This document shows positions 3,026 through 35,678 of a stretch of 64,000 nt of DNA, one piece after another (position 1 is the first letter of the stretch; each line of letters opens with the position of its first letter). Source of the DNA: Savitreella phatthalungensis (Eukaryota); contig AP039704.1 of the NCBI GenBank assembly GCA_051599415.1, positions 1 through 64,000 on the forward strand, given 5' to 3'. A program made the position numbers and the translations under genes. The notes under the pieces are model-generated. The model was not told where the DNA came from. It was given only the letters and a program-made list of their open reading frames with translations, and did no database searches.

Positions 3026-3525
3026 ACGGCCGCGAGGGATCCACGCAGACACATACCTGGTACGCGAATTTGATGCTGGGCAACGGTAGCCAGCAGTCCT
3101 GGCCGATGCCATACGTCGTGTCTTGGGCTGGTGACGGATTTTGGGTGCATCACCCGGACAAGGCTGACCTGATGTTTGGACCGGATGCTCATACAGACCT
3201 GCCAAAGTACTTCTACGCGTCTGTGAATGTCCACAGTCTGAAGCTTGGCTTGGACAGCACTGTCGAGTTGTGTAACTTGCAGAGAATTGCAAAGCTGAAA
3301 GTGGAGATCCACGCGCGCACGGCGTCTAGGACCATTGTGTATCCGCTGTCAGTCGGCGCAGCCCGCATCACTGCAACAAACAAAAACAAGTCCCCGCCTA
3401 TAAAGTTGGAGATCTTCTTCCGGGCGCTCGAGGGACCACTGGCATGCGCACCTCCCCATCGCCTCGGCTTCTTCGACGCAACCTTGCAGTCAGCCGTCCA
3501 GCACAACTTCCAATTGATTTCTCAG
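3026..3525 (+). pseudogene. Truncated, internally deleted duplicate of the GH81 endo-1,3-beta-glucanase gene
   Basis: Aligns by eye to 50941-51350 and 51651-51740 (QTHTWYANLMLGNGSQQSWPMPYVVSW...). Lacks the N-terminus and the catalytic C-terminal domain. Confidence 0.93.
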
Positions 3526-4559
3526 CTTGTCATCAAGAAGAAGATGGCCGTCAGAGACACAGCGGTGCCACGAGAGAGCCTGACTTGATGAGCTGAGGCG
3601 ATGGGCGGCGCTGCGGACAGGTGAGACGGCCGCTATCGCACCAAGAGTCATCGGCGACGGTCAGGGCAGAGCCAATTCGACTTCCGATTTTCCTGTCTGC
3701 TGCCCCGGCTTGCGAGCACACTGCGAATCTCTGTCACCGTCGCGCTGGACAGTTGACCGACCAGCCGCCGACAGATCCGGCATCGAAAGGACCCGGCCCA
3801 GCCTTTCTGCGCGTGCTCGACGATGCGACTGACATGCCTACAAAAAGCGGAAGCTATGCGCACGGGTCCCGGATGACCGCTTGACGGCTGTGTTGCGATA
3901 CGACGAGCTCGACTGCTCCAGACACGTCAGAACTCGATCAGCTTTGTCGGTCCGGGTAGGCCGACAGGGGCCGGCCTGCAGCAGGCGCTCTCGACATGAG
4001 TCCAGCTGGCATGCATCGTCTCCTGGGCATGAGTCAGGCCGACACTTCTCGCAGATCTTCCCAGACAATCGCAAATAGGGCTCGGAGAGATCACCTTCTC
4101 TGTCCGATGATCAGATAGACAGATGCTTTTGTTTACAATCTCCTGAAATTGATTTCGACTCGACCGCACGTCGTAAACACGTGATTTCATTGGCTCTGTT
4201 GCCATGTCAGACGCTTTACTGTTTGTTTTGATGCATGAAATTGCCTCGTTTGCCACCATCTGGGCTTGCCCCGCGGTCCGCAAAAGTGATCGGCACTTCA
4301 TTTTTGTTCACGGTCAAGGCATCGTTCACTCACATCTGACCCATCCAGTGTGCGTCAACGTAGGCCTGCCCGATGGCCCTGGCCTGACGCTCTCGAGCGA
4401 TGACGTTTGATTCACGAGGACCAGGTTCCATCGGAGACGGGTTCGCGCTATGGTACGGTGCGAGTATACGTTCTACTGTCGCCCATATAGAATGCTACGA
4501 TACTATACTCCTGTTTACCCTCGTGAACATTGCAAGCTGAGATTTTGATGATCCTGTGC

Positions 4560-5078
4560 TAGTGTCTGCGTCGTACCGCGATCTGTGCAAGTATGGGTGC
4601 TCGTCTTGACGGGTACCCCTCGAATCTGCCAACCGCGTGCGCTTCACTTCAGCGCAGTGCTGGTATGCGTGGTCGACGTTTCGATCCGCGCTCATGGTCA
4701 TGTCTGTGTACGCTCTCGTGGCCATCCTTGTGCTCTTTGCTTGTGGTCGTGAAGTGCTCCTCTTCCCGTTCATGTCCGTATTCATCTTTGTGCGCATGCT
4801 CGTGCTCGTACCCATGCTCGTGAACGTGCTCGTACATGCATTCGTATGCTTCCGCGTCCCGATACGCGTGGTCGCCGATGCCGTGGTCCTAGATCTTGAT
4901 CGTGCCTTTTCTTTGTGCCCTGCTCGTATGCGTGTGCGTGTCGCCGATGTATCCGTACCTGTGTTCGTCCTCATGTTCGTCCTCGTACGCCTGATCGTCA
5001 GGGTAGTCGCTCTCGTGTGGGTATTCATGATCGCTCTCGCGTGGGTATTCGTGATCGCTCTCGTGTTCGTGATCGTGA

Positions 5079-5117
<39 letters not shown>

Positions 5118-6000
5118 TTCGTGCCCGTCCTTGTTCTCGTCCCCGGATGTGTGATCGAGTCGGTGTGCGCGATCGTGTTCTTCTCTTTGCAGTGCTCGCG
5201 TCTGGATTGCTTTGGTGCCGGCGGTTGTACCCGCGATGCGCGTAGTCGTTGACGAATTCGCTTCCAAATCCGTGATCGTGCTCTCGTGTCCATGCTCGTC
5301 TTCGTAAGTGTGGTCGTGGTGACGTCCATGATCATGCTCTCGCTCGTGCTCATGCTCGTCTTCGTATTTGTTGTCATGTTTGTACACCGCGCTCGTGATG
5401 GTCTTTGTACCGTGTTCGTGTGCAGAACATTGCTTGGATCGGAGAGGGCTCTGGTTGTTGCACAAGTTTTTGTATGCTTGTGCGCGCCTACATGGGAACT
5501 CATGACGTCGACGTTTCCTCCGCTCTCGCCTCCGTATGCGCGCTCGTGTCTGCCTATTCCTTTGCATCAGTGCTCACACTTGCGCTCGTGTCCGTGCCAA
5601 TGCTGTCCTTTCCGATCCGTGAGCATAGACATATCCACGTTGCTGAGCGTGTTTGTGTCTATAAGTGTACTCGACTGTGTACATGAGCGCTTGCTTGCAT
5701 GCGAGCTCGTCTTTGCATCCGCGGTCATTTGTACGCGTCCCTGTGAGCGCGCTCGGTCTGATCTTCATGCTCGTCTCTGTACACGCGCTCATGATTGTTC
5801 GTGTGACCCTGGTACGGATGATGACCATGTTCACCTTCCGGTCCGTACGCGTCTTTGTGTTCGTGGTCTCACTCTTCTCTGTATGCAGGCCCTCGTCCAT
5901 ACTAGTGTTTCCGATCGTGTCCGTGCGTGTGGTGATGATGAGGATACGTAGGAGTGCTTGCGCGCCTTCAATTCGATCCTTGCTTGCGCTTTCATTCGTC
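4560..6000 (-). repeat. Low-complexity CACGAG/GAGCAC-rich tract; His/Glu-rich reading broken across frames (possible relic gene)
   Basis: HEHEHD-type peptides appear in several minus-strand ORF fragments (4649-4837, 4889-5503, 5025-5567). Internal 24-bp repeat at about 5007-5075 and (CTCGTGCT)n at about 5081-5115. Confidence 0.6.
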
Positions 6001-6644
6001 CTACCTTCCGTGAATGCTCTCTTGAGCCTGAGGATGCATCGGTTCCGATCGATTTTCAGGATGCAGGTTCATGTTCGGATTGACGTCTATGCTTGGACCG
6101 TCATACTTGGTTGGCCCGGTCGCGTCGGGGGTGCTCGTGTCCGGTGTCCGTCACACCGGCAACGTCCGCGTTCTGTGGCTGGATGCGTCCTCGTTCTTGT
6201 GTGTGCGTATGTGCTCGTCGATCGCGCATCGATCTTGTGGATGCGTGAAAGTTGTGTGTTCGTGACTGCAGCTCGTCGAGCTTTCGATCGCATCTGCGCA
6301 TGTAGCGGTGGTGCTCGAAGCATCCACCTGCTTCCACGCTCGTGGGCATCATCCGTGCTGGCTGTTTCCTGAGCTCTCGCGTCACGACTTGTGCTCGATG
6401 CTGGCGTCTGTGCTTGTGCCGCTTCATTCCTTGTTCCTTTGTCGACGGACAAGGCTCGAGGCAGCGATGAAGAGAACAATATGTATGCATATGATTGACT
6501 ATTTCTTGAGAGGAAGAGCGGCGATCAAGGATCGAAGGATGTGAATGATTGGGATCAGGGACCGACAGTCGTGAACGGCGCGGGACCACAGTTGCGAGCG
6601 GCTAGGATGGACCGATAGTCGTGAATGGGTAGGATCGGCTAGGA

Positions 6645-9600: not shown

Positions 9601-10502
9601 CTTCGACAGGTTCCGACAGCGCTGAGGGCATCGTCGCGTGCAGTCGAGCATTGATGCAGGCTCTGCTCCAGCTCCGCGGCTTGCTCCGTGAGGGCCTCAC
9701 TCTCGACGCGCCAGGTCTCGGCGAGGGTTTTGCAGTCTTCGAGCTTCCTCTGCAGCGCCGCCTTGTCCTGTGCTGCGGCCTCTGCTTCACCTCGATAGGT
9801 CTCGACAGTGCTGAGGGCATTGTCGCGTGCAGTCGTGCAGTCTCGGATCTCACGCTCCAGCGCCGCCTTGTCCTGTGCTGCTGCCTCTGCTTCACCACGA
9901 CAGTTCTCGACAAGACCTAGTGCTGTGTCGCGCGCAGCTGTACACTGCTGTAGTCTCTCTTCTAGCTCGGCAACCTTCTCTCTGGCTTTGTCTCGTTCTC
10001 TCTGATACTCCTTCAGCCAGCCCGTGACGCGCGTCAGCTGCTCGGCAAGATCCTGCAGGCGAGAAAGCATTGTGCTGCTTTGACTCTCGTCGTCGGTGCG
10101 TCTGCGCTTCTGTGTGCAGGTGATGCCTCTCTGCAGCATTGCAAAGCTATCGCGGATGACTTGCTCCATGTGCTCGTTCCTGCCAGCACAAAGCCTGATG
10201 AGCATGTTGCACAGTTGAAGCTGAGGCGCAGTGATGTCTGGCCAGACCTCACGCAGGGTCTGCATGATGTTGTCGGATGAGGGAGCCAGTACTGTGTCCG
10301 AAGCATCATCGCTCGCATCTTCTGAGTCGCGAGCTCCGAAGGGAGTGAGGTCTGGACGGAACACCTGGTGCGCTCTCAGCTCTGCGGCGTCTGAATCAGA
10401 TAGACCTTCGTTGAGGTCGCTGATGACAGAATTGGCTAGTCTGGTTCGACGTGCCGGCATCTTGTGCGAGTCATGTGACCATGGCCGATGGGACTCCTGC
10501 AT
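6645..10502 (-). CDS. Orphan 1285-aa coiled-coil tandem-repeat protein
   Basis: Uninterrupted 3.86-kb ORF with ATG start; repeat units of 35, 28 and 14 aa (105/84/42 bp); non-repetitive N- and C-termini. Confidence 0.8.
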   Translation of the reverse strand: MQESHRPWSHDSHKMPARRTRLANSVISDLNEGLSDSDAAELRAHQVFRPDLTPFGARDSEDASDDASDTVLAPSSDNIMQTLREVWPDITAPQLQLCNMLIRLCAGRNEHMEQVIRDSFAMLQRGITCTQKRRRTDDESQSSTMLSRLQDLAEQLTRVTGWLKEYQRERDKAREKVAELEERLQQCTAARDTALGLVENCRGEAEAAAQDKAALEREIRDCTTARDNALSTVETYRGEAEAAAQDKAALQRKLEDCKTLAETWRVESEALTEQAAELEQSLHQCSTARDDALSAVGTCRSEAEAAAQDKATLEREVRDCTTARDTALSAVETCRTEAEAAAQDKAALEERLRGLTGHVEELQQSLQQCSTARDNALSAVETCRSDAEAAVQSKATLEREAEAAAQDKATLEREIRDCTTARDNALSAVDTYRDEAAVVAGHLEDCLTVLGETLNLAEQRQNEVLGTAQKLRDCTVIAENHRAEADAIAQDLQTCTAARDTAAALAETLRAEAAVLTRELQDTSAARDSATALAETYHAEAKAVTQSLRHRTAARVEALELAETRRAENAALAQELQDCSAARDTATALAETRRAEADAVKQDLRHRTAARDEALKLAKTRQAEAAVLTRELQDSLATRDRATERAQRRQHEATVIAQTMRDVKSERNKAVDLAERRRVQVDAISKELRDHTIERDAAVNLAESRRAQVESTSQELRDQVEAISHELRDRTTERDAAVDLAEGRRAQVDAISQDLRAQVEAISQEVRDRTTAYDSISQDLRNRTAAYDSVSQDLRDRTAAYDSISQDLRDRMNERDAAVDLAERRHAQVDAISQELRDRTAAFDSISQDLRDRMNERDAAVDLAERRHAQVDAISQELRDRTAAFDAISQELRDRTAAFDSTSQELRDRTAAYDEATNLAESRRAEAESLSQELHDRTAAYDSISQELRDRTAAYDSISQDLHDRTAAFDSISQDLRDRTAALDEAIKLAESRRVELATAVQELRDCSSACSTAIVLAESRRVRLATVAEHAIELERPHHEATTRAEATPPRAEEQEHQERIHLASPRTEAAPEPNTDLEASLSRIVVESAAAGRCTELRLATERPRMIEQAAIEEFLDTPFTLANAAAIEHPLQLGQFSLRPLQGEIAYTAGIHADLSAGGDRDRLMQRFRTSPMVLRVNFGTNNPRRLRYVVLAPHPDLEQRWIDTAGAVHYGETPVRPDRSVYAHTTASLDSVRRRLGVGVLSQLPLSSANRDILIRVQDYPQIRLLCRSLMNIRSALRFGP

Positions 10503-10546
10503 GCTTTGTTTTTAGGTGAATTGACGTTTCAGATTGAGTGACGAGA

Positions 10547-11920
10547 ATGACGTCCACAGTCAAAGAGCTGCACGACGTGCGTCCAAGGCAGTGGTGCGAG
10601 TCTGACAGCAAGCTGAACGTCCTCAAGGGTACTGCGACGTCTGTGGAGACGCTGATTGTCACTGGCGGCCCTCCAGATCCCGCTGCACCTGCACAGGTGG
10701 CAGAACACAGGCGCCTCTGGAAGAAGGTGTGCGAGGTCGCGAGACTTGATCCTGCTCACCAGCAGTATCATGAGGCCTTCTCGTTGCTGCAGCCCTTTGG
10801 ATCGACCGCGATGCTGAAAGCGATACTCAACGCTCACGAGGTCTCTCAGGGAACAATGCCTGCCAGCGAGGCCGCTGAGCTGCTGGATGATCACAAAGCG
10901 CTTGCGAGATCGTCCGAGGCCCCGCGGGATGCGCTCGCACGCCTCCAGAAGGCACAGGACGAGGCGCTGGGTGATCGACGTGACCTCAGCGTCGACGGTG
11001 GCGGTTACGACTATAGCGTCGACAGTGGCGTTGCTGCAGCAGTGTACTTCTCCTGTTCTTATGTCGCGCGAGAGAGCTCTGAACCGTCACACAGGCGATG
11101 CAGACGGCCGCGCTGCTTTGACAGCACTCTGAGGACGTATGCTGGTGCGACGTGGTCGCTCAAACGCCGCAGCCGATACCCAGCCAGATTCCTCGCTCAT
11201 TCTGATTTGGCGGTACGCGATGCGGACGACGACTCGCTCTGGCAGCACATTCTGAGGTCGCGACTGCCAGGACAGAGGCACAGGCATGTGGTGTTTGTCG
11301 CGCTGTGTGCGAGGCATGGTTGTGGCCGACAGGTTGCGCAGCAGCCACTGTTGCCGCCTCCGCCTCCACCGAAAGGTTACGAGTTTGTTGATGCCGCAGA
11401 GACGCTCGTTTGTGCGGCTTCGAAGTCGTTCGCACCCTGGAGCGGCGGTGGCAACGCAGAGCCGTGCCACTTTGATGTGAGCAGGTACAGGTCGGATGCC
11501 AGCGTGGCGGAGGCGGAGCCCTCATGCTGCTTTCCACTGTTGTCGGTGCCTCCGACGTGGGAGTCGCCAGTCACGCTCCCGATCGCGCGCCAGATCATCT
11601 ACAGCGCCTCGAGACTGGAGGACGATGGTGCCAGACATGTGAAGCTGACGGCCGTGGAGCGTGAGTACTACCGTCGCTCGATGCTGATGGCGACGATGCG
11701 CTACCACGCCGAGGCGAGTGATCGCGGCTTGACCGGAGATGAGATCGCGCAGATCATCGGCTGTAGGCGGCTGATGAAGAGCACCTGGGCTTTCCAGAAC
11801 GATAATGGGTCTGCCGAGATGCGCAGGCTGCTCGCCGAGCACGTCGCTGTGCGACCGACGATCAGCAGTACAAAGCGATGCGAAGAGTTCATCGATTCCT
11901 GGGTCAGAGGGCGCTTCTAG
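10547..11920 (+). CDS. Hypothetical protein, about 457 aa, no family recognised
   Basis: Long ORF; first ATG at 10547 (track start 10538 is GTG); divergent from the coiled-coil gene. Confidence 0.6.
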   Translation: MTSTVKELHDVRPRQWCESDSKLNVLKGTATSVETLIVTGGPPDPAAPAQVAEHRRLWKKVCEVARLDPAHQQYHEAFSLLQPFGSTAMLKAILNAHEVSQGTMPASEAAELLDDHKALARSSEAPRDALARLQKAQDEALGDRRDLSVDGGGYDYSVDSGVAAAVYFSCSYVARESSEPSHRRCRRPRCFDSTLRTYAGATWSLKRRSRYPARFLAHSDLAVRDADDDSLWQHILRSRLPGQRHRHVVFVALCARHGCGRQVAQQPLLPPPPPPKGYEFVDAAETLVCAASKSFAPWSGGGNAEPCHFDVSRYRSDASVAEAEPSCCFPLLSVPPTWESPVTLPIARQIIYSASRLEDDGARHVKLTAVEREYYRRSMLMATMRYHAEASDRGLTGDEIAQIIGCRRLMKSTWAFQNDNGSAEMRRLLAEHVAVRPTISSTKRCEEFIDSWVRGRF

Positions 11921-12867: not shown

Positions 12868-13938
12868 TCAATATCGTCTACGCTTTGCGGCTCTCGGGTC
12901 GAGCTCTTGCGTGTCCTGCTGTAGCCAGGGTGCCGTCGGCTTTATAGAGGGTCGGTCTGGTTCACGTGAAGTGTCTGTGACTGTGCCGCGTGCCGGTCGG
13001 AATGTATCGGGTCGGGAGTATGTGTGGTGTGAACGGTCGTGGTGATTGTGAGGGGGACGTTCGTACCCTCCAGAGGGCTCGGGACGGCGCTCGTACCCTC
13101 CAGAGGGCTCGGGACGACGCTCGTTCCACTTTCGGAATTGGGGGCGACGGTCGTGCTGTGGAGAGGATTGACGGACGTGATGAGAGGAGTGTGCAGAGCG
13201 ACGGGCGTCATGGGAGTCTTGTGCAGAGTGACGGACATGATGGGAGTCTTGTGCAGAGTGACGGACGTGATCGGAGTGATGTGAGGAGTCACGGAAGTGC
13301 TGGGAGTGATAGGGGGGGTGACGGACGTGCTGGGAGTGATGTGAGGAGTGACGGACAGGTTGCGGAGCTCCCCTACGGGCCCTGCCGCCGAGACCACCGC
13401 CCAAGCGCATCGGCAACCAGCCCTTCACGGTGCGTCCGCGCTCGACGTCCAGCAGGACCTCTCTACCCCTGATCTCGATCGTGCTCCCCAACACGTCACG
13501 CATGTCGCGCTCCCGCCCAAAGACCACGAACGCGTACCCTTTGGAGTTGCCCGCGCTGTCACGCACGACGCGGACCCGCTCGACCACACCGTAGCGTGCA
13601 AACACGCCCTGTAGCTCTTCCTCGTCCGCATCATAGTGTAGTCTGCCCACGAAAAGCGTGCTGTACGGGTCGCCTGAGTGTCTGGGGTTGTACTCCTCCA
13701 GCTGCCTCCGTCTTGCTGCCTCGTGCGCCTCTCGCTTCTGCCTGCGCAGCCGGTTGATGCGTTCCTGGGCCGTCTCCGTCTTCGTGTACGCGTCATCACC
13801 ACCGGCATCAAAGTGGGAGAGGTACTCGCCAACTCCCGAGGGACGTTGTTCGCGTCTTCGGAGGGGCTCTTCGAGATACCTGAGGGGTGGACGGGCCTTG
13901 AAGAGCTTGAGGAGCTGCGGCGGCAGTGCGGACGTCAT
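12868..13938 (-). CDS. SNP1: U1 snRNP 70K protein
   Basis: U1-70K N-terminus (LPPQLLKLFKARPPL), RRM (TLFVGRL, KGYAFV), DVERGRTVKGWLPMRLGGGLGG. Confidence 0.96.
   Translation of the reverse strand: MTSALPPQLLKLFKARPPLRYLEEPLRRREQRPSGVGEYLSHFDAGGDDAYTKTETAQERINRLRRQKREAHEAARRRQLEEYNPRHSGDPYSTLFVGRLHYDADEEELQGVFARYGVVERVRVVRDSAGNSKGYAFVVFGRERDMRDVLGSTIEIRGREVLLDVERGRTVKGWLPMRLGGGLGGRARRGAPQPVRHSSHHSQHVRHPPYHSQHFRDSSHHSDHVRHSAQDSHHVRHSAQDSHDARRSAHSSHHVRQSSPQHDRRPQFRKWNERRPEPSGGYERRPEPSGGYERPPHNHHDRSHHTYSRPDTFRPARGTVTDTSREPDRPSIKPTAPWLQQDTQELDPRAAKRRRY
13060..13360 (-). repeat. 30-bp coding tandem repeats in the U1-70K tail
   Basis: About 6 copies of HVRHSxxxSH and 2 copies of RRPEPSGGYE. Confidence 0.85.
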
Positions 13939-13986
13939 GCGTCGTGTTTAAAAAAAGAATCCCTGCGCACGGCTCCACTTCTCTTC

Positions 13987-16404
13987 ATGAACACGCAAAA
14001 GCTCATCCCGTCGCCGGTGGTTCTGGCGGTGCTGGACGGGGTTGTGGTGTTCAAGGATAGGGCGGTATGGTACGAGAGACCATGGCGGGAGGTCCACTCC
14101 AGGGATCTTGAGAGACCTGTCCGCGCTGCCACTCTCTTTGATGGGGATCTGGCGGTGGTGGACGAGGACGAGGTGCTGGCGCTGCGCGACATACGGAGCC
14201 GCATAGCCGATGACGCGTCCCCGACCGTCCAACTCGTACAGCTGGGGTCGAGCCTCTACAGACTCCACATGAACGGCCTGCTGACGCGCTACCTGGTCGG
14301 CGAGGACGGCCTGCTGGAGAGACACGACGAGAGGCTTCCTGCGGGGTCGCGCATTTTGGGCATGGATGACGAGCTGCTCGTGTTTGACGGCTCTTCCGTC
14401 CATCGACTGGGTGACCCTCCAAAACCGGTCGTCGAGCCTTCTGTCTGCCTCGGGATGACCCGCGTGGGCAAGACGATCGTCGTCGCCCTCCCCAAAAAAA
14501 TCCTGTGCATGCCGCTCGACGAGTTCTCCTCAAGCATAGACCCACACGTGCGGGAGTACGACGTGAGGGGGGTGGCCGGGGAGTATGTGCTCGTTCCCGG
14601 TGGGTACGTGCACATCGACGAACAGGGCGAGCCCCTCCAGAAGGTCTCCCTGGGGTTCTCCCCGACACTCGCATCCCACGGAGTCTTTGCGGACGGGGCC
14701 GGGAATCTGGAGGTCGACGGGGAGTCGGTTGGCGGACCGGCGCTTCTGCTGGACGGGATAGCGGACGATGACAAGCTGGTGGTGTGCGGGAGGGACCACG
14801 TCGCCGTCATGAGGAAGGGACTGGACACGCGTACGAGTGACGTGGTGCCGATGGATCTGAGCGGCGCGCTGGACGTCTTCTGCGTTGACGTGCTCGGCGT
14901 GAGGGAGAACGCGTACATCCTGATCAGCTTCCCATGGGCGTCGCTCGTGCTCGCCTCGTCGGACGACGGCCTGGAGGACGTGAGCGAGCAGCTCGACATC
15001 ATCAGGGAGCCGACCCTCCTGTTTGCCGAGTTTGGTGACGGCTTCGTGCAAGTCTGCCCGAGCGGCGTGGCCACGATCACGAAGAGCGGAACGACGCGGC
15101 TGGCGGGTGGAGGAGGCATCACGGCGGCTGCGATCTGGGGGAACGGTCTCGCCCTCGCACGAGGGGACATGCTCGAGGTACACCTGATCGATGGGATGCG
15201 GCAGATCTCGCTGGGGGGTGAGGCGCTCTGCATGGCGTCCTCTCAGATTCCCGCGCGAGGAAGTGAGGTGCTCTGTACGGCGTCCTCGCAGACGCGCGCG
15301 CTAGGTCCGGCGAGGGATCAGACCCTCTTGGCGATCGGATTCCTGGGAGAGATACGTCTCTATACAGGGGAGCTCTCGCTCGAGCGCGTCATCGCCGTGG
15401 ACGGACACCCGAAGAGTATCTCGGGCTGTCACGTCTGCATGAGGGACGGCACCCTGCAGAGTTTCTGGGGTGGCTCCCCTAGGTCCGTCGGGGAGGGAAG
15501 ATCGGGATTCGCACGCGTGGCATACGGCTATGCGGTGGACGAGCGAGGTGAACTCTGGAGGCTCCAGGACATGTCGCCTGTGATCGGAATATCTGCAAAG
15601 GGCTTTGTCGCGACCATCTCGCCCTTTGACAGCACGCGTCCGTCGGGCCTGCTGCACTACACCGAGGAGTCGCTCTCGTTCAGCGCAGTGGCGGTCGATG
15701 TGACGTACGTCAGACGGACGGTGTCGCCTGGAGGGAGACGCATCCGAAGGTTCATGAATTACTACATCGTGGGGGGCGAGGACATTGCCGTGCTGGACGT
15801 CGCCACGCTCGCCCGGCTGAATGGGCCAAACATTCAGAAGGAGAGATCGCTGCTCCGCGCGGACGAACGCATCTACGGACTGTGCATCTGGCAGTCGTTC
15901 GTGGTCGTCTGCGTCGGGGATGCGGCCGGAGGCAGGCTGCTCGTGCTCCAGGTCAAGGACAACGGTACGCGGCTCAAGCTCGTCTACAAGCGCCGATTCG
16001 ATGCCGGGGTCTACGCTGCTTGCGCGCACGGCGAGCTCCTTGCCATCTCGCACGGCAGACAGGTCGACGTGCTTCGTCTCGAGGAGAATCGGCTGGTGGT
16101 GGTCGAGACGCACGTCGTGAGATCCCTTGCTGTGGAGATATGCTGGAAGGACGGCCCGAGGGCGCTGACGCAGCTCGACGGGGTCTATCCTGGTGGACGA
16201 CCGCTCCTGGCCACTTGCATGTCCGGTGACATCCTCGCGGACAAACACAGGTGGCTTCACAATGGCGACGAGAAGGTCAGACTCACTTCCGTCGCTACCC
16301 GCCTCATAGATACTCCTGAAGGCGTCCTCGCCATATGCCTCGATGGTAGTGTTCACCGGATCTGCGGGGTCCCCAGATCTACACGTATTGACGTCATCCA
16401 CTAA
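13987..16404 (+). CDS. Mms1/DDB1/CPSF-A-like beta-propeller protein
   Basis: First ATG outside SNP1 is 13987 (MNTQKLIPSPVV); all-beta composition; YILISFPW...EPTLLFAEFGDGFVQVCPSGV and GRLLVLQV...LKLVYK resemble DDB1/RSE1/MMS1 propellers. Confidence 0.7.
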   Translation: MNTQKLIPSPVVLAVLDGVVVFKDRAVWYERPWREVHSRDLERPVRAATLFDGDLAVVDEDEVLALRDIRSRIADDASPTVQLVQLGSSLYRLHMNGLLTRYLVGEDGLLERHDERLPAGSRILGMDDELLVFDGSSVHRLGDPPKPVVEPSVCLGMTRVGKTIVVALPKKILCMPLDEFSSSIDPHVREYDVRGVAGEYVLVPGGYVHIDEQGEPLQKVSLGFSPTLASHGVFADGAGNLEVDGESVGGPALLLDGIADDDKLVVCGRDHVAVMRKGLDTRTSDVVPMDLSGALDVFCVDVLGVRENAYILISFPWASLVLASSDDGLEDVSEQLDIIREPTLLFAEFGDGFVQVCPSGVATITKSGTTRLAGGGGITAAAIWGNGLALARGDMLEVHLIDGMRQISLGGEALCMASSQIPARGSEVLCTASSQTRALGPARDQTLLAIGFLGEIRLYTGELSLERVIAVDGHPKSISGCHVCMRDGTLQSFWGGSPRSVGEGRSGFARVAYGYAVDERGELWRLQDMSPVIGISAKGFVATISPFDSTRPSGLLHYTEESLSFSAVAVDVTYVRRTVSPGGRRIRRFMNYYIVGGEDIAVLDVATLARLNGPNIQKERSLLRADERIYGLCIWQSFVVVCVGDAAGGRLLVLQVKDNGTRLKLVYKRRFDAGVYAACAHGELLAISHGRQVDVLRLEENRLVVVETHVVRSLAVEICWKDGPRALTQLDGVYPGGRPLLATCMSGDILADKHRWLHNGDEKVRLTSVATRLIDTPEGVLAICLDGSVHRICGVPRSTRIDVIH

Positions 16405-16490
16405 TAATCACGCACTTTACGCATGCATATATATAATTAGGGTCCTCCCCACTTCAGATTCTCCCCCTTATCCACCCCGCGCCCCCATCA

Positions 16491-16783
16491 ATGTCGACGA
16501 AGAAGCTGTCTCAGTCGCCCATCAAGAAGCCAGACTCGCCGCATGCTGCCATGGGCGTCGGCGAGAGGACTGCAAAGGGTAGTCCAGCACCTGGTAAGTT
16601 TCTAACGATCTCTATCTACCCTTCGCCCTCAGTATTCGCTGACCAGCTACAGGACAAGGAAAGGCGCCGCCTGCAGAGATCGGTGAGCCGTCTGAGCCAT
16701 CGGCCATGTCACCGGAAGAGAAGCGTCAACTCCAGGCGGATGATCCTACCCTGTCTGGACCGAAGCCGAAGCCAAAGTTGTAG
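16491..16783 (+). CDS. Small spliced protein, 77 aa (exons 16491-16593, 16653-16783), ending KPKPKL
   Basis: 59-nt intron GTAAGT...GCTGAC...CAG (16594-16652); splicing gives a clean ORF; TATA-like ATATATAA at about 16428. Confidence 0.65.
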
Positions 16784-22003: not shown

Positions 22004-22555
22004 ATGGGCAAGACACCAGTCTTCGTGGTCGGTGGACCGGCAGGAAGCGGCAAGACGACCGTGTGCGAGCGTGTGTCAGAACTCGAGCGGTTCGCCTTCA
22101 TCGAAGGAGACTCGCTACATCCGCGAGAGAACATCGACAAGATGACTGCGGGAGTCCCACTTACAGACGACGACCGTTGGCCCTGGCTTGAATGCATCGT
22201 CGAGCGTGCAAAGGAGCTTGCGAGGGATGACTCGAATCTCGGTGTCATCCTGACTTGCTCAGCACTCAAGAAGCGGTATCGAGATCGGCTACGGAAGGTG
22301 AACGATCAGGCGGACGTCTCCTTGGACTTTATCTTCCTACGAGTCAGCGAGGACGAGCTCAGACGAAGGATGGCCACGCGCAAGGGACACTACATGAAGC
22401 CCGGCATGCTGGAATCTCAATTGAGGGATCTCGAGATGCCTGAAGTCGGCGAGGAACCACACACGGAGATTTGTGACGCCGACCACGACATAGACACCAC
22501 CGAGCGGAACGTCTTGCGCATCATTGCGAAGGTCCTCGCGCGCGATCGGCAGTAG
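22004..22555 (+). CDS. Gluconokinase (GntK/IdnK type)
   Basis: P-loop GPAGSGKTT, IEGDSLHP.ENIDKM..GVPLTDDDRWPWL, CSALKKRYRD, HYMKPGMLESQ; ATG at 22004. Confidence 0.95.
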   Translation: MGKTPVFVVGGPAGSGKTTVCERVSELERFAFIEGDSLHPRENIDKMTAGVPLTDDDRWPWLECIVERAKELARDDSNLGVILTCSALKKRYRDRLRKVNDQADVSLDFIFLRVSEDELRRRMATRKGHYMKPGMLESQLRDLEMPEVGEEPHTEICDADHDIDTTERNVLRIIAKVLARDRQ

Positions 22556-22715: not shown

Positions 22716-23756
22716 CTATGTATGTGAGCGTGCCGTCAGCTCTCGATACCTCTCCAGGTGTTGCTCGATGGTCAAGCCATTCCACTTGTTGTCGATCACG
22801 GACGGCAATCCGACCTGCTGGCACGCTAGGCCGGCAGCGACGCTGGCATTTGCAGCAGCCTCGCATAGGGAGTCAATATCAATGCGTCTGCCGACGAGAG
22901 ACCGGCCGAGCGCGCCACAAAAGGTATTGCCCGCCCCGGTCGTGTCCACAACATTTTGGGCATACGCCGGAAGCCAGCGAAGATCGTCACCGACGGCGAC
23001 CAGGCAGCCTTCCTCGCCACAGCGGACTACGACCTGGCGGATGTCGGCACGTTGCAGCAGCTCTCTCGCAAGTTCTTCTGGTGCTCCAGAATGACCGAGA
23101 ATGCCCCCAAGCTCGTGCAGATTTGGAGACACGACCGAGACGCGCTGCAGGGCGAGGACAAATTCTGCCCACCAAGTCTTCTCGTCCTCGCCGGCACCTC
23201 GGAAGCAGCCGTCCGGGATAGGTTCCCACACGGAAATCGATTCAGGAAGCTCGTCGAGAATGGCACAGGCTCTCTGAGGTGTGCAGACGAGATGAAAGCA
23301 CGCCGCGCGCATCATTCGCCCAGGAAGATCGGCAGGGGTGATCCGCTTCTTCGGAGTCAGGTAGCTGAACTCACGAACCCCTTTCTCCGTATACGTATTC
23401 AGGCCACGCGTGCACAGCCGGGACGCATCTCTCCGGACGAGCAGATCCAGGCCGTAGCTCCGAAGCTGTACCTCTACACTTGCAGGGGTATCTTGGCCAT
23501 AATCGACGATGAAGCCCACCGTGTCATCGTACTCGCCATCGTACGGACGAGAGAACATGCGTGCACCGATTGCTGCAAAGGTTCCAGCTCCGCCAATGAC
23601 GTCGTCGACCACCTTTCCATCTGCTTCAACGATGCGGTCAATGATGAACATGCCAAAGGTGGTGAAAGCGCTGCGAGGAGTGTACTCCTGATTCTTCTCC
23701 TTCCGTGGGATGTTCTTGGCGATGAGGCCGCCCACACCGAGCAAGAGTGCGGCCAT
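22716..23756 (-). CDS. MAK32: PfkB/ribokinase-family protein, Mak32-like
   Basis: FTTFGMFIIDRI, IGGAGTFAAIGAR, WEPIP, VVSPN, VVDTTGAGNTFCG. The only ATG upstream of the conserved motif is 23756. Confidence 0.85.
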   Translation of the reverse strand: MAALLLGVGGLIAKNIPRKEKNQEYTPRSAFTTFGMFIIDRIVEADGKVVDDVIGGAGTFAAIGARMFSRPYDGEYDDTVGFIVDYGQDTPASVEVQLRSYGLDLLVRRDASRLCTRGLNTYTEKGVREFSYLTPKKRITPADLPGRMMRAACFHLVCTPQRACAILDELPESISVWEPIPDGCFRGAGEDEKTWWAEFVLALQRVSVVSPNLHELGGILGHSGAPEELARELLQRADIRQVVVRCGEEGCLVAVGDDLRWLPAYAQNVVDTTGAGNTFCGALGRSLVGRRIDIDSLCEAAANASVAAGLACQQVGLPSVIDNKWNGLTIEQHLERYRELTARSHT

Positions 23757-23998
23757 CACAGATCGGCGAGTTCCTCGATCGTCCGAAGCGTCACCTCAAG
23801 ACTGTCGAAGAATGCGTTGAGGGATGTCCTGGCTAGACGAGCGCTGTCTGCGCGCATGTCCATGATGAGCGCATCGTCTTTGACTGAGATCTCCTTACTG
23901 ACTTGGCGAGGCTTGATCTCCGGATCAGGACGCAAGACTCTCTGACACACCTCTGCAACGCCTGGAGGAAGCGGCAGTTCTAGTCGGAGGGTGTGCAT
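23756..23998 (-). CDS. PCC1: KEOPS/EKC complex subunit Pcc1
   Basis: 80 aa; HTLRLELPL...L.PDPEIKP..VSK...A.SARLARTSLNAFFDSL matches the Pcc1 pattern. Confidence 0.85.
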   Translation of the reverse strand: MHTLRLELPLPPGVAEVCQRVLRPDPEIKPRQVSKEISVKDDALIMDMRADSARLARTSLNAFFDSLEVTLRTIEELADL

Positions 23999-24234
23999 CG
24001 TGGGTGCAAGCTGTGTGCGTGCGTGCGCGCCTGGGTTTACGCGTATCTCTGTGCGTGCGTGCTGAGCATGTCCAACCAGACGAAACGTAAAGTAAAAATG
24101 TCTAGTTCAAAGGCATCCAGAATGAAAGTGAAAGTGAAAGTGCACGGGTTCAAAAGTAAAATTTATAATATCTCGCACGACTCTGTACTCTATCTTCAAC
24201 TAGGCACGACCTTCTTCATCTCTCCTTCCAAGTC

Positions 24235-26079
24235 ATGCCACCGAAGAAGGCTCAGCAGGAGACGAGTGAGTCACTCACGCGTATCGCTATTGTCGACAAT
24301 GACAAGTGCAAGCCAAAAAAGTGTCGGCAGGAGTGCAAGAAGGGATGTCCTGTCGTGAGGACGGGAAAGCTCTGTATTGAGGTCACTCCGGACTCTCGTA
24401 TCGCATTCATCTCGGAGTCTCTATGCATCGGCTGTGGTATCTGCACGAAGAAGTGCCCTTTCGAGGCGATCCACATCATCAACTTGCCTACCAACCTCGG
24501 TAGCGAGGTCACTCACCGGTACAGTGCAAACTCTTTCAAGGTTCACCGTCTGCCGTCTCCTCGGCCGGGACAGGTGCTCGGACTGGTCGGCACCAACGGT
24601 ATTGGCAAGTCGACAGCTCTCAAGATCCTTGCAGGCAAGCTCAAGCCTAACCTTGGCAAATTCGATAGCCCACCGGACTGGGAGGACATCCTCAAGTACT
24701 TCCGTGGTTCGGAGCTCCAGAATTACTTCGTCAAGGTGCTCGAGGACAACTTGAAAGCGGTCATCAAGCCGCAGTACGTCGATCACATCCCGAGAGCCAT
24801 CAAGGGTCCCGTCAAACGCGTCGGAGAGCTCCTGAAGCGCGACAAGAAGGAGGAGGAATTGCCCTATGTGGACGAGATCATTCACGTGCTCGATCTGCAG
24901 GACTTGCAGGAGCGTGAGGTCGCCCAGCTTTCCGGCGGAGAGCTACAGAGATTCGCCATCGCCGCAACATGCGTCAACCCGGCAGACGTCTACATGTTCG
25001 ACGAGCCATCGTCCTACCTCGACGTGAAGCAGCGTCTCAAGGCCGCCAGACAGATCAGAGCGCTCTGCAAGCCGACGAACTACGTGATTGTGGTCGAGCA
25101 CGATCTCTCGATCCTCGACTACCTGTCGGACTTTGTGTGCGTGCTGTACGGCATGCCATCGTTCTACGGCGTCGTGACCCTGCCATTCAGCGTGCGTGAG
25201 GGTATCAACGTCTTCCTCGACGGACACATCCCGACTGAGAACTTGCGGTTTAGGCAGGAGTCTCTCTCCTTCAAGATCACCGATGCATCGACAGAGGAGG
25301 CCATCGAGCGGTTCCGCAACTACAACTACGAGGCGATGCGCAAGACGCAGGGCGACTTCCGCCTGTACGTCAAGGCTGGTGACTTCACCGACTCCGAGAT
25401 TATCGTCATGCTCGGCGAGAACGGCACGGGCAAGACGACGTTCGTCAAGATGCTTGCCGGCGCCACCCAGCCGGACGTCGGTGGCAAGATCCCGCAGCTG
25501 AACGTGTCGATGAAGCCGCAGAAGATCGCACCAAAGTTCCAGGGCACCGTCCGCATGCTCCTCCTGAAGAAGATCAAGGGTGCCTTCTTCAACCCGCAGT
25601 TCCAGGCAGACGTGTGCAAGCCGCTGGCGCTCGACAACATTATTGACCAGGAGGTTCAGGTGCTGTCGGGTGGAGAGCTGCAGCGCGTTGCCATCATCTT
25701 GTGTCTCGGCACGCCGGCCGACATCTACCTGATCGACGAGCCGTCGGCGTACCTCGACTCCGAGCAGCGTATCCACGCGGCCAAGGTCATCAAGCGCTAC
25801 ATCCTGCATGCGCGCAAGACCGCGTTCGTGGTCGAGCACGACTTCATCATGGCCACCTACCTCGCAGACAGGGTCATCTGCTACGAGGGTCAGCCTGGTG
25901 TGGAGGCAACGGCAAATGCGCCGCAGTCGCTCCTCACAGGTATGAACAAGTTCCTCAAGCAACTCGACGTCACCTTCAGGCGTGACCCGAATACCTACAG
26001 GCCGCGTATCAACAAGAGCGAGTCGCAGCAGGACCAGACGCAGAAGGCGAGCGGCGATTACTTCTTCTACGACGCCTAG
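24235..26079 (+). CDS. RLI1: ABCE1 ribosome recycling ATPase
   Basis: N-terminal Fe-S domain ([27 protein letters not shown]); two NBDs ([24 protein letters not shown]). Confidence 0.99.
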
Positions 26080-26105
26080 GTCTCTTCGTCTACGGCTCGA
26101 CTCTA

Positions 26106-27290
26106 TTAGATGTAGCCCCGAGCGACGGCCAGCTCGGCGTTCAGAATGCCCATGCCGGCAGCACCGAGCACCGTGTTGTGCACGAGGGCTACGAACCGGA
26201 TGCCCTTCAGGGTGTCGTCCGCTGAGCAAAGCGGTCTGAGTCGGCCGACCGACACGGCGTAGCCGTTGTCGAGCTCCCGATCGAGTCTCGGCTGCGGCCG
26301 GTCATCCTCCTCGTGCACAAAGATGGCTCTCTTCGGTGCAGACGGCATCACCACACCCGTCTCCTTCTCGACCTCTGCCAATGGCATGTACGACTCCCAG
26401 CACTGGCGGACCTCGTCCAGCGTCCTTGGAGCAGGTCTGTCAGCGGCAAATCTTAGGGAGACGCACATGAGGTGACCGTCGAGGACTGCGACACGGTTGC
26501 AGGATGCCGAAACGGTCATGCCGCGCTTCATATCCACTTGTAGAGCACCCTGTCTGTAGCCGCCCAGAATTTTGAGAGACTCCCACTCCATCTTCTCCTC
26601 TTCGCCAGAGATGTGCGGGACCACGTTGTCGAGGATGTCGAGCGACGGCACGCCAGGGTATCCTCCGCCGGAAATGGCCTGCATCGTGACCACAGATACA
26701 TCGAACAGGGCGTCCGGCCAGGTCTTCTGGAGTGCAGCGAGCGGGACAACCAGGCCAGATGTCGAGCAATTGGAATTTGTCACGATGAAGCCCTTGCCGC
26801 TGCCTGTTTCGCGCTGCTGGACGGGGATCATGTCGATGTGGGAAGGGTTGGCAGTCGGGACGACGAGGGGCACGAGCAGGTCCCTGCGGTAGTTGCGAGC
26901 GTTCGAGAAGATGCGGAAACCGGCCTTGCGGAAGGCGGCCTCGATCTCTCCTGCGACGTCGCTGTCGAGACCTGAGAAGATGATGTCGCAGCCGGCAAAG
27001 TGTTCAGGCGAGCATGGCTTGATGACGATCTGCCGTACGGCGTCTGCGCACGGTGTCGTCTGCTTCCACTTTGTCGCCTTGATGTATGGCTTGCCCGCTG
27101 AGCGTGCGCTCGCGCCGAGCGAGTGAATCTTTAGGTACGGGTGCCGGGACAACAAGGTGATGAATCGCTGACCCACCGTTCCCGTGGCACCGAGCACACC
27201 CACTTGGAGGCTGCTGCTGCCGGATAGATGACTCTGGATACTCTGTAGTCTTGTGCTCATCCTGTGGTGTCGTGGGATCAACTGGGACAT
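26106..27290 (-). CDS. HOM2: Aspartate-semialdehyde dehydrogenase (alternative ATG at 27260)
   Basis: VGVLGATGTVGQRF, TNSNCST catalytic Cys, TMQAISGGGYPG, HNTVLGAAG. Confidence 0.97.
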   Translation of the reverse strand: MSQLIPRHHRMSTRLQSIQSHLSGSSSLQVGVLGATGTVGQRFITLLSRHPYLKIHSLGASARSAGKPYIKATKWKQTTPCADAVRQIVIKPCSPEHFAGCDIIFSGLDSDVAGEIEAAFRKAGFRIFSNARNYRRDLLVPLVVPTANPSHIDMIPVQQRETGSGKGFIVTNSNCSTSGLVVPLAALQKTWPDALFDVSVVTMQAISGGGYPGVPSLDILDNVVPHISGEEEKMEWESLKILGGYRQGALQVDMKRGMTVSASCNRVAVLDGHLMCVSLRFAADRPAPRTLDEVRQCWESYMPLAEVEKETGVVMPSAPKRAIFVHEEDDRPQPRLDRELDNGYAVSVGRLRPLCSADDTLKGIRFVALVHNTVLGAAGMGILNAELAVARGYI

Positions 27291-34269: not shown

Positions 34270-34698
34270 ATGCTTAGATCTCGAGTCTTGCGTGCGGCAG
34301 AGTCATTTCCCTCGAGGCCGAGGGAGCCTCGGGGGCCAAAAATTCCCCTGATGCAGCCGCTGCCGCTGTACCGACTGATTCTGCGGACACACAGACTCAA
34401 GCTGCCTGATCACTTGCGCGCGGTCGGCGATCCATATGTCAAGTCAGAGTTCCGCCTGCACAAGGACATCGATAACCCCATACATATTGTCGGTTTCCTG
34501 ACGGAGTGGCAGAAATATGCTCAGGATCTGCAGGGTGAGGGTTGGCGCGGGGTCAAGATCGACAAGGACAAGGTGGACAAGATGAGCGACGAGCAGCTCG
34601 GTCAGCTGTACGAGCTCATGCAGGCTGCTCGTGATCAGCAAGAGGCCAAGGAGGTATCTGACGCTCACGAGCTCATCGACAGGATCATCTCGAAGTAG
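34270..34698 (+). CDS. SDH7: Succinate dehydrogenase assembly factor 3 (Acn9/Sdh7), LYR family
   Basis: PLYRLILRTHR..LP..LR.VGD.YVKSEFRLHK..DNPIHIVGFLTEWQ.Y; basic N-terminal presequence. Confidence 0.93.
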   Translation: MLRSRVLRAAESFPSRPREPRGPKIPLMQPLPLYRLILRTHRLKLPDHLRAVGDPYVKSEFRLHKDIDNPIHIVGFLTEWQKYAQDLQGEGWRGVKIDKDKVDKMSDEQLGQLYELMQAARDQQEAKEVSDAHELIDRIISK

Positions 34699-34745
34699 AT
34701 AATAAAGGTAGGTACAAAAATTGGGAGGGCACTCGCCGGACGCCG

Positions 34746-35678
34746 CTAAGCTGCTGCAGCCTCGATTTGCAAAGCACCCTCGGCTTCGCCTTCTGGCTGA
34801 CGCCAAAGTGTGATTTCGGATTGCTTGAAGTATCGACGATTCTCCTCGTCCAGGAGCACGAGGGAGAGTAGGTAGCGGGCGGAGAACTTCTTGTTGACAT
34901 CCCGGAAGGTCGGCGTGAGGTCGAAGCCGCCGAGGAAAAGTCTGATAGGGATAGTCTCGCCGCGCACGGGTGCACCATCCATAATCTCAAACTTTGTAAT
35001 GGTCTCTGACTCATTGTACTGATTCGGCGCCGTGCCCGTCGTCTCTCTGCGGATAATGGAAAGCTCCATGTGCTTGATCTTCAGCCGGACGAGAAGGAAG
35101 TAGATTTTGCCAACGATCACGTCTTTCAAGTGGTACTTTGCTTTCGAGTACTCGAACTCGATGTGCAGACAGTCCTCGATGCCGACGTCCATCTTGATGA
35201 CGGAGTTACCTTCCGGTGGCGCCTTGTAGGAGTACACCCAGATGTCCTTCTCCCTAACAACATCAGGCATACGCCGGCTGACTGTGACGCGTACAAAATA
35301 GCGTAGTCGTACGTTGATGCCGTGGTAGGACTCGTACTGCTTCTCTACGTTTTTGAACTCGAATGGGAAATCGACGGCGTTGCGCAACTCGCCTGGTGCT
35401 GCGAGCTCTTGCTGCTGTGATAGAAACTCGTAGTGATTACCGCGATCGAAGAAGAGCTCGATGCTGCCGATGAATTGCACCTTGATACCGTTGTGCTCTA
35501 GCCGCCGACCGTCCTTTGGCCGGATTGTAACCACACCCTTGACACTCTCTCCGTCCGCATACAATGGCGCCTTCTCCTTCCTGTCCTTCCCGACTTTCAT
35601 GTCCACGAGCTTCCGACCGTCCTCGCCATCCAGACGGATGTCGATGTCCAGCGGGGCCTTGAACAGGAGCGACGCCAT
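34746..35678 (-). CDS. VPS26: Retromer subunit Vps26
   Basis: KMDVGIEDCLHIEFEYSK, VGKIYFLLVRLKIKHMELS, MDGAPVRGETIPIRLFL, RRYFKQ. Confidence 0.98.
   Translation of the reverse strand: MASLLFKAPLDIDIRLDGEDGRKLVDMKVGKDRKEKAPLYADGESVKGVVTIRPKDGRRLEHNGIKVQFIGSIELFFDRGNHYEFLSQQQELAAPGELRNAVDFPFEFKNVEKQYESYHGINVRLRYFVRVTVSRRMPDVVREKDIWVYSYKAPPEGNSVIKMDVGIEDCLHIEFEYSKAKYHLKDVIVGKIYFLLVRLKIKHMELSIIRRETTGTAPNQYNESETITKFEIMDGAPVRGETIPIRLFLGGFDLTPTFRDVNKKFSARYLLSLVLLDEENRRYFKQSEITLWRQPEGEAEGALQIEAAAA

Follow-up and report, generated by a model that had tools for sequence, protein, structure and literature searches.

A Pcc1 gene and a MAK32-like kinase gene share one nucleotide in a compact fungal chromosome segment

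Two adjacent protein-coding genes on the minus strand of the 64-kb stretch of DNA analyzed here (the window) overlap by a single nucleotide. The upstream gene encodes Pcc1, a subunit of the KEOPS/EKC complex (80 amino acids; 23998..23756), and the downstream gene encodes a PfkB-family, MAK32-like kinase (346 amino acids; 23756..22716). Both are genuine genes, and their overlap was correctly described in an initial reading of the same DNA (hereafter, the sequence-only reading), which suggested that one mRNA may make both proteins or, alternatively, that the kinase promoter lies inside PCC1. The locus is most likely one more case of overlapping neighbor genes in a compact eukaryotic genome, an arrangement of a known kind. 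The compaction of the window agrees better with an internal kinase promoter in PCC1 than with a stop-restart on one mRNA, and we put at about even the chance that Pcc1 and the kinase are independent genes whose transcription units came to overlap after spacer loss, the kinase transcript beginning within Pcc1.

The minus-strand letters at the junction are ...GAT CTG TGA TGG CC..., so that the Pcc1 stop codon (TGA, 23758-23756) and the kinase start codon (ATG, 23756-23754) have one A in common. This TGATG stop/start junction (23754..23758, minus strand) places the kinase in frame -1 (= +2) relative to Pcc1, and the 1-nt overlap leaves zero nucleotides of intergenic DNA; on the shared A, its coordinates and letters, and on the missing spacer, the sequence-only reading was right. 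The kinase AUG has a G at -3 and a G at +4, and is within the local norm, a purine being found at -3 in 19 of 26 genes.

The 80-residue product matches the Pcc1 family profile PF09341 over practically its entire length (E=6.3e-17, profile positions 2-75 of 75). Pcc1 is a small tRNA-modification subunit, and the 65 relatives recovered at E<=0.001 from among 1.84 billion representative proteins are mostly 76-115 amino acids long. Sixty sequences were aligned, namely 58 homologues of no more than 140 amino acids together with the window protein and the Pcc1 portion of P0050. The C-terminus of the window protein, EELADL, falls in an end column common to 20 of the 60 rows (the window protein included), and the extension beyond it is at most 5 amino acids in 45 of the 60. 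P0050, the closest relative at ~60% identity, terminates in an identical EELADL, and the window protein ends exactly where P0050, P0051, P0059, P0060 and P0064 end. Alignment of the C-terminus with the ends of homologues, P0050 above all, indicates that the Pcc1 stop sits at its natural, ancestral position, and this natural end, together with the full-length profile match, identifies the product as a member of the Pcc1 family. A near-length search of a public protein set with this sequence returned zero matches, the window's own protein included, and the 80-residue Pcc1 appears to be missing from that set. Upstream of the gene lies a divergent intergenic region of 236 nt (23999..24234) that contains a TATAAA-like element and has a GC content of 0.46-0.50, compared to ~0.58 in its flanks; it is presumed to be the promoter region for Pcc1, shared with the divergent RLI1 gene.

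The 346-residue product matches the PfkB profile PF00294 (E=1.9e-17), and 49 homologues were retrieved at E<=0.001; those with names are fungal, and some are labelled Mak32p or MAK32 by their sources. In a 15-sequence alignment (A1), the window protein retains 49 of the 49 invariant columns, and it is predicted to be a PfkB/MAK32-like kinase that includes both the N-terminal GMFIID block and the TGAGN motif. An identical 346-residue product is present in the public collection as P0001. The claim that a single ATG lies upstream of the FTTFGMFIID motif holds: the kinase frame is open for just 14 codons 5' of the ATG, with no ATG among them, and the next in-frame methionine, M36, is inside the invariant GMFIID block and after the invariant F31. 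A start at M36 was considered and rejected, as it would cut away the invariant F31 and G35 and truncate the conserved core; the ATG at 23756-23754 is therefore the sole usable kinase start that the conserved core would allow. The N-terminal 27 residues are not conserved, the first conserved position being at about R28 (RSAF), and the leader of 30 amino acids that precedes F31 is the longest among the 15 aligned sequences, the others having 2-21. This long, non-conserved leader looks as if the nearest upstream ATG was recruited once the spacer had been lost.

The surroundings of the pair are very compact. The window is fungal by content, with Zn2Cys6 and Fungal_trans_2 domains, and its convergent genes are separated by stop-to-stop gaps of 160, 26, 47, 85 and 170 nt. 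The 160-nt gap is that between the kinase stop and a small P-loop kinase (AAA_33/gluconokinase-like; 22004..22555, plus strand), the 26-nt gap that between RLI1 and an aspartate-semialdehyde dehydrogenase, and the 47-nt gap that between the LYR and Vps26 genes. Divergent gaps, measured between first-ATG calls, go down to 44 and 48 nt; a PDB sequence search for a relative of the gene at 13987, made to check its start, gave zero matches. The divergent neighbor of Pcc1 is an RLI1/ABCE1 orthologue (24235..26079, plus strand; ABC_tran and Fer4_RLI domains), and that a recycling factor should stand next to this junction is a curiosity, not evidence. With gaps as short as these, 3' ends and promoters must often fall inside neighboring genes. 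The 11 tandem junctions have stop-to-ATG gaps of 131, 209, -1, 113, 515, 451, 95, 1348, 163, 420 and 1536 nt, among which the Pcc1/kinase junction is the only one under 95 nt, a clear outlier and not the mere tail of the distribution; given the compaction elsewhere in the window, its gap of -1 can be seen as the extreme of a continuum.

A scan for TGATG/ATGA junctions, which the sequence-only reading had proposed for the whole genome, was carried out within the 64-kb window and yielded seven stop/start overlaps (of 1 or 4 nt) among 158 ATG-to-stop ORFs of at least 70 amino acids. Most of the seven pairs involve ORFs that are antisense to real genes or have no family support. With Pfam run on part of the 14 ORFs concerned, Pcc1/kinase is the only pair in which both ORFs belong to the non-overlapping gene set and are supported by Pfam. 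As a bare pattern, the overlap is not beyond chance; the unusual part is that both partners are conserved genes.

Under the reading that we favor, the spacer between two unrelated genes would have been lost while the Pcc1 stop remained unmoved, and the kinase would have taken the first ATG on offer, which by happenstance overlaps that stop. Transcription of Pcc1 would be driven by the 236-nt promoter region that it shares with the divergent RLI1 gene, and the 3' end of the Pcc1 mRNA probably falls just inside the kinase coding sequence, at a poly(A) site whose position we infer from the convergent gaps of 26-47 nt elsewhere in the window: these imply 3' ends inside neighbors, and the same is expected here. 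The kinase would be made by ordinary cap-dependent scanning of its own mRNA, the 5' end of which may lie within Pcc1, probably among the final ~100 nt of its coding sequence, a stretch that has no AUG. The last AUG 5' of the kinase AUG is at 23857, and the 98 nt that follow (23757..23854, minus strand) contain none in any frame; they are a candidate site for the kinase transcription start and 5' UTR, as a transcript starting there would present the kinase AUG first. Most genes in the window have a shorter AUG-free leader; an AUG-free run of 101 nt is found at 25% of coding positions, so that the stretch is permissive, not significant. No core promoter element such as TATA is recognizable inside Pcc1, which counts against an internal promoter; a TATA-type core element is absent from most fungal promoters. 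Read-through Pcc1-kinase transcripts may exist too, although little kinase protein would be expected from them.

The foremost alternative is that both proteins are made from a bicistronic mRNA, on which the ribosome would end Pcc1 at the UGA and the 40S subunit (or the 80S ribosome) would restart at the overlapping AUG, a coupling that would fix the kinase/Pcc1 ratio at a low value. We consider this unlikely, even though the ORF1 stop overlaps the ORF2 AUG by 1 nt in UGAUG, the classical stop-restart arrangement. Viral junctions of the UAAUG and AUGA types are described, and the mouse GAD and human SLAMF1 mRNAs are reported to have UGAUG (PMC5972666). A promoter spacer is absent, Pcc1 is short (80 codons), and the purine at -3 and G at +4 of the kinase AUG are favorable to the restart. 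Some cases of cellular termination-reinitiation (CASQ2 and others) are reported to have no TURBS-like element (PMC5972666), the replacement of UAA by UGA in CHV1 constructs is reported to leave coupling largely unaffected in the fungal host (PMC2699510), and Saccharomyces cerevisiae can, according to one account, be induced to 80S-mediated reinitiation (PMC11952965).

Against these points, UGGGA, the core of TURBS motif 1 (PMC5972666), does not occur between the RLI1 end of the leader and the junction (24234-23740). A pseudoknot-free fold of 121 nt around the junction has a free energy of -40.2 kcal/mol, compared to -37.85 +/- 3.79 for shuffled sequences (z=-0.62; 54 of 200 shuffles as stable), and neither the UGGGA search nor the fold thus revealed a 40S-tethering cis element, be it UGGGA with complementarity to 18S h26 or a structure. 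At 80 codons, ORF1 is far over the length that usually permits reinitiation in yeast: permissive uORFs are given as usually below 10 codons in yeast, below 16 in plants and below 30 in mammals, and reinitiation after long ORFs is described as presumably very rare (PMC5972666). Reported reinitiation efficiencies are 2.5-20%; for CHV1 in Cryphonectria the figure is 2.5-4.4%, with a requirement for upstream p40 sequence, and an EGFP-UAAUG-Fluc construct in the same host is reported to give zero Fluc activity, so that the bare pentamer is insufficient (PMC2699510). The account for S. cerevisiae states that the second cistron of a polycistron is not normally translated: from a three-cistron construct that was transcribed, cistron 1 alone was expressed until selection induced 80S reinitiation, unselected yeast leaving cistron 2 untranslated (PMC11952965).

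A selected operon-like unit might be kept in other lineages, and the sequence-only reading had named conservation of the overlap in related genomes as a check; the outcome in 80 distant loci was negative. A metagenome scan with A1 matched at least 586 stretches, of which at least 353 encode relatives of the kinase, and the best 80 of these (27-39% identity) were used. The nearest relatives (P0002, P0003, P0050 and P0051, at 50-60% identity) are outside this sample of 80 loci; taken by protein, the kinase relatives P0002 and P0003 are ~50% identical to the window sequence, and the Pcc1 relatives P0050 and P0051 49-61%. A Pcc1 HMM built from the 60 aligned sequences, which scores the window at 3.9e-28, found Pcc1 at 0 of the 80 loci, with flanks of up to 4 kb per side searched and a best E of 6, a count that could miss a Pcc1 split by introns; tblastn of Pcc1 against the same loci gave nothing below E=3.9. 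Upstream DNA before the expected kinase start amounts to at least 600 nt in 59 of the 80 loci, at least 1000 nt in 51 and at least 2000 nt in 42. The adjacency is thus not kept among the best 80 of at least 353 MAK32-like loci. Fused or paired gene models are likewise missing from the protein matches: a Pcc1 domain is found in none of the 49 kinase homologues, and the seven Pcc1 matches longer than 140 amino acids have no significant similarity to the kinase (best E=0.031, before the Pcc1 domain). The sole longer Pcc1 relative in a word-based search is P0050, the 106-residue extension of which is N-terminal and unrelated to the kinase. With Pcc1 at none of the 80 distant loci, the pairing appears to be neither ancient nor an old selected unit.

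An mRNA that carries a 1-kb 'UTR' after its stop codon, as that of Pcc1 would, is expected to attract nonsense-mediated decay. Read-through polycistrons of Arabidopsis are reported to be targets of this pathway (PMC9768141). Overall, the computational tests lean against a dedicated stop-restart device, given the absence of both UGGGA and a slippery site, the unremarkable fold, the 80-codon ORF1, the inertness of a bare UAAUG in a fungus and the lack of conservation of the pair. That one capped mRNA yields both proteins, the overlapping AUG being used for a natural restart once an 80-codon ORF has been read and with no TURBS-like element, seems to us rather unlikely.

It is distinctly improbable that the junction is not as read in the cell, either through an assembly indel near 23756 or through another 5' exon of the kinase. 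The best splice candidate runs from a donor-like GTGTGT at 23950 to a CAG at 23690 and would join the first 16 Pcc1 codons to the kinase; this pair keeps the frame, and the N-terminal 27 kinase residues are not conserved. A scan of 24234-23650 for splice signals detected three donor-like sites, two YAG acceptors (23690 and 23673) and one branch-like motif (23928). The assertion that the region has no branch point or acceptor was therefore largely correct, with the amendment that the two YAG trinucleotides are present and that the sole branch-like motif lies more than 230 nt upstream. Neither acceptor has a branch-like motif within 230 nt, the tract before the CAG at 23690 is purine-rich and has no pyrimidine tract, and by our estimate about 2 of the 6 donor/acceptor combinations would be in frame by chance. 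The genes of the window run as long ORFs without a break, which points to a genome poor in introns; an intron suspected at 16404-16491 proved to be simply the end of a gene (TAA TAA). An indel is not needed to explain either ORF, since the Pcc1 end matches those of its relatives and the same 346-residue kinase is found in the public collection as P0001.

Leaky scanning, in which some 40S subunits would pass the Pcc1 AUG on a bicistronic mRNA and start at the kinase AUG, is very improbable here. It has a precedent in natural green-algal bicistronic loci, some with an overlapping ORF1 stop and ORF2 start, that are reported to use it (PMC11291117). At the present locus, four AUGs would have to be skipped (23998, 23874, 23863 and 23857), the Pcc1 AUG has an A at -3, and AUGs are not depleted in Pcc1, three internal ones in 243 nt being about the coding background. 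The combination of a weak ORF1 start context with zero intervening AUGs is thus not found, and we rejected leaky scanning because of the four AUGs that precede the kinase AUG; in the green algae, a single AUG put back into ORF1 is reported to lower the output of ORF2 to the background level (PMC11291117). A Pcc1-kinase fusion protein made by a -1 ribosomal frameshift late in Pcc1 is barely conceivable: the kinase frame is -1 relative to that of Pcc1 and open for 14 codons before its ATG, but the pairing of slippery heptamer and structure that marks programmed -1 frameshifting is not seen, with no X XXY YYZ heptamer anywhere in Pcc1 (the ground on which the fusion was rejected), no stable structure 3' of the Pcc1 end (z=-0.62) and no fused homologue found.

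Among known systems, the plant CDC26-TTM3 bicistronic transcript, in which a small conserved protein is encoded upstream of an enzyme, resembles the locus in that the ORF of a small conserved subunit immediately precedes that of an unrelated enzyme. The CDC26-TTM3 pair is reported to be conserved across plants, whereas Pcc1-MAK32 adjacency is found at 0 of 80 distant fungal loci (the best 80 of at least 353). A parallel in gene spacing may be drawn with the microsporidia Encephalitozoon cuniculi and Antonospora locustae, which have very short or absent spacers, comparable to the convergent gaps of 26-170 nt and the tandem gaps down to 95 nt of the window; transcripts in compact microsporidian genomes are reported often to begin in the gene upstream or to end in the one downstream (PMC3629993). 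The window, by contrast, is not microsporidian: it is a GC-rich (~58%), free-standing piece of a fungal chromosome on which Zn2Cys6 factors occur alongside ordinary housekeeping genes, and its transcript ends are predicted. The calicivirus TURBS, the UAAUG of influenza B M1/BM2 and of the hypovirus CHV1, and the UGAUG of GAD and SLAMF1 share with it an overlapping stop and start and a downstream ORF in another frame; they differ in that the UGGGA core and significant structure are absent here, where both ORFs are conserved cellular genes and their co-transcription is hypothetical. The polycistronic transcripts of Agaricomycetes are similar in that adjacent same-strand nuclear genes could share a poly(A) RNA (Gordon et al. 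2015, PMC4503453); these cases are presented as read-through transcripts, the source leaving their translation open and reporting none in the ascomycete N. crassa. Green-algal polycistronic transcripts (PMC7896298, PMC11291117) also come from same-strand neighbors, some of the loci being reported to have overlapping stop and start codons and to be read by leaky scanning (PMC11291117), which the AUG content of Pcc1 disfavors here.

If the reinitiation reading were true, the locus would be a rare natural case of cellular stop-restart after a long ORF in fungi, notable in that it would operate with no viral element. It would then be a cellular counterpart of the stop-restart of hypoviruses and caliciviruses and a naturally occurring example of the 'hidden' ability for bicistronic expression recently induced in yeast, and would offer a small, tractable locus for the study of post-termination ribosome fate. 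The apparent absence of the 80-residue Pcc1 from the public protein set is a warning to annotators. If the ordinary reading that we favor is true, the pair shows clearly how far the loss of a spacer can be carried in a compact fungal genome, the promoter of one gene and the poly(A) site of the other both lying within neighboring coding sequence.

When the public protein collection was searched with the 80-aa KEOPS subunit Pcc1 (23756-23998, minus strand) at 'near' length, no matches were returned, its own product included. The adjoining PfkB/MAK32-like kinase, unlike Pcc1, is present in that collection (as P0001). The annotation of the source assembly probably lacks the Pcc1 gene. A 10-codon ORF (24069-24037, minus strand; ATG CTC ... 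TAA) begins at an out-of-frame ATG that precedes the Pcc1 ATG by 68 nt, and Pcc1 would lie behind this short uORF if its transcript starts upstream of it.

The closest relative of the Pcc1 encoded in the window, P0050, is approximately 60% identical to it and has the EELADL end in common. The gene call for P0050 is 186 aa long and includes a 106-aa N-terminal extension, acidic and of low complexity, which is followed by an internal methionine that aligns with the start of the window Pcc1; in that assembly the gene has probably been called too long. Another protein, P0052 (643 aa, from the representative library), contains eight separate stretches matching Pcc1 residues 17-54 (E = 1e-11, 26% identity) and looks like a repeat protein made of a Pcc1-like segment.

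The TGATG pentamer, through which the Pcc1 stop codon shares its A with the kinase ATG (23754-23758, minus strand), is also found at gene ends without a downstream gene. The stop of phosphoglycerate kinase (27404, minus strand) reads TGATGA, a pair of stop codons in the same frame; the ATG contained in this hexamer opens no ORF of at least 70 aa.

Elsewhere in the window, a 171-aa ORF (3073-3588, plus strand) matches the GH81 N-terminal domain only in part (profile positions 25-152 of 323), and a complete 790-aa GH81 glucanase is encoded 47 kb away (50532-52904, plus strand). This fragment could be what is left of a gene that has become a pseudogene, or it could be one exon of a second GH81 gene that is interrupted. 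Overlapping ORFs crowd the region around it (4495-6372), with no family matches among them.

Several neighboring genes are closely spaced. Among divergent pairs, 44 nt separate the predicted first ATGs of a 1285-aa coiled-coil ORF and a 457-aa ORF (10502-10547), and 48 nt those of U1-70K, whose start is backed by a Pfam match from residue 4, and an 805-aa RSE1/CPSF1-like ORF, whose start is predicted (13938-13987). In the convergent orientation, the stop codons of RLI1/ABCE1 and aspartate-semialdehyde dehydrogenase are 26 nt apart (26079-26106) and those of an LYR protein and Vps26 are 47 nt apart (34698-34746); the 3' UTRs of both convergent pairs must overlap the opposite gene.
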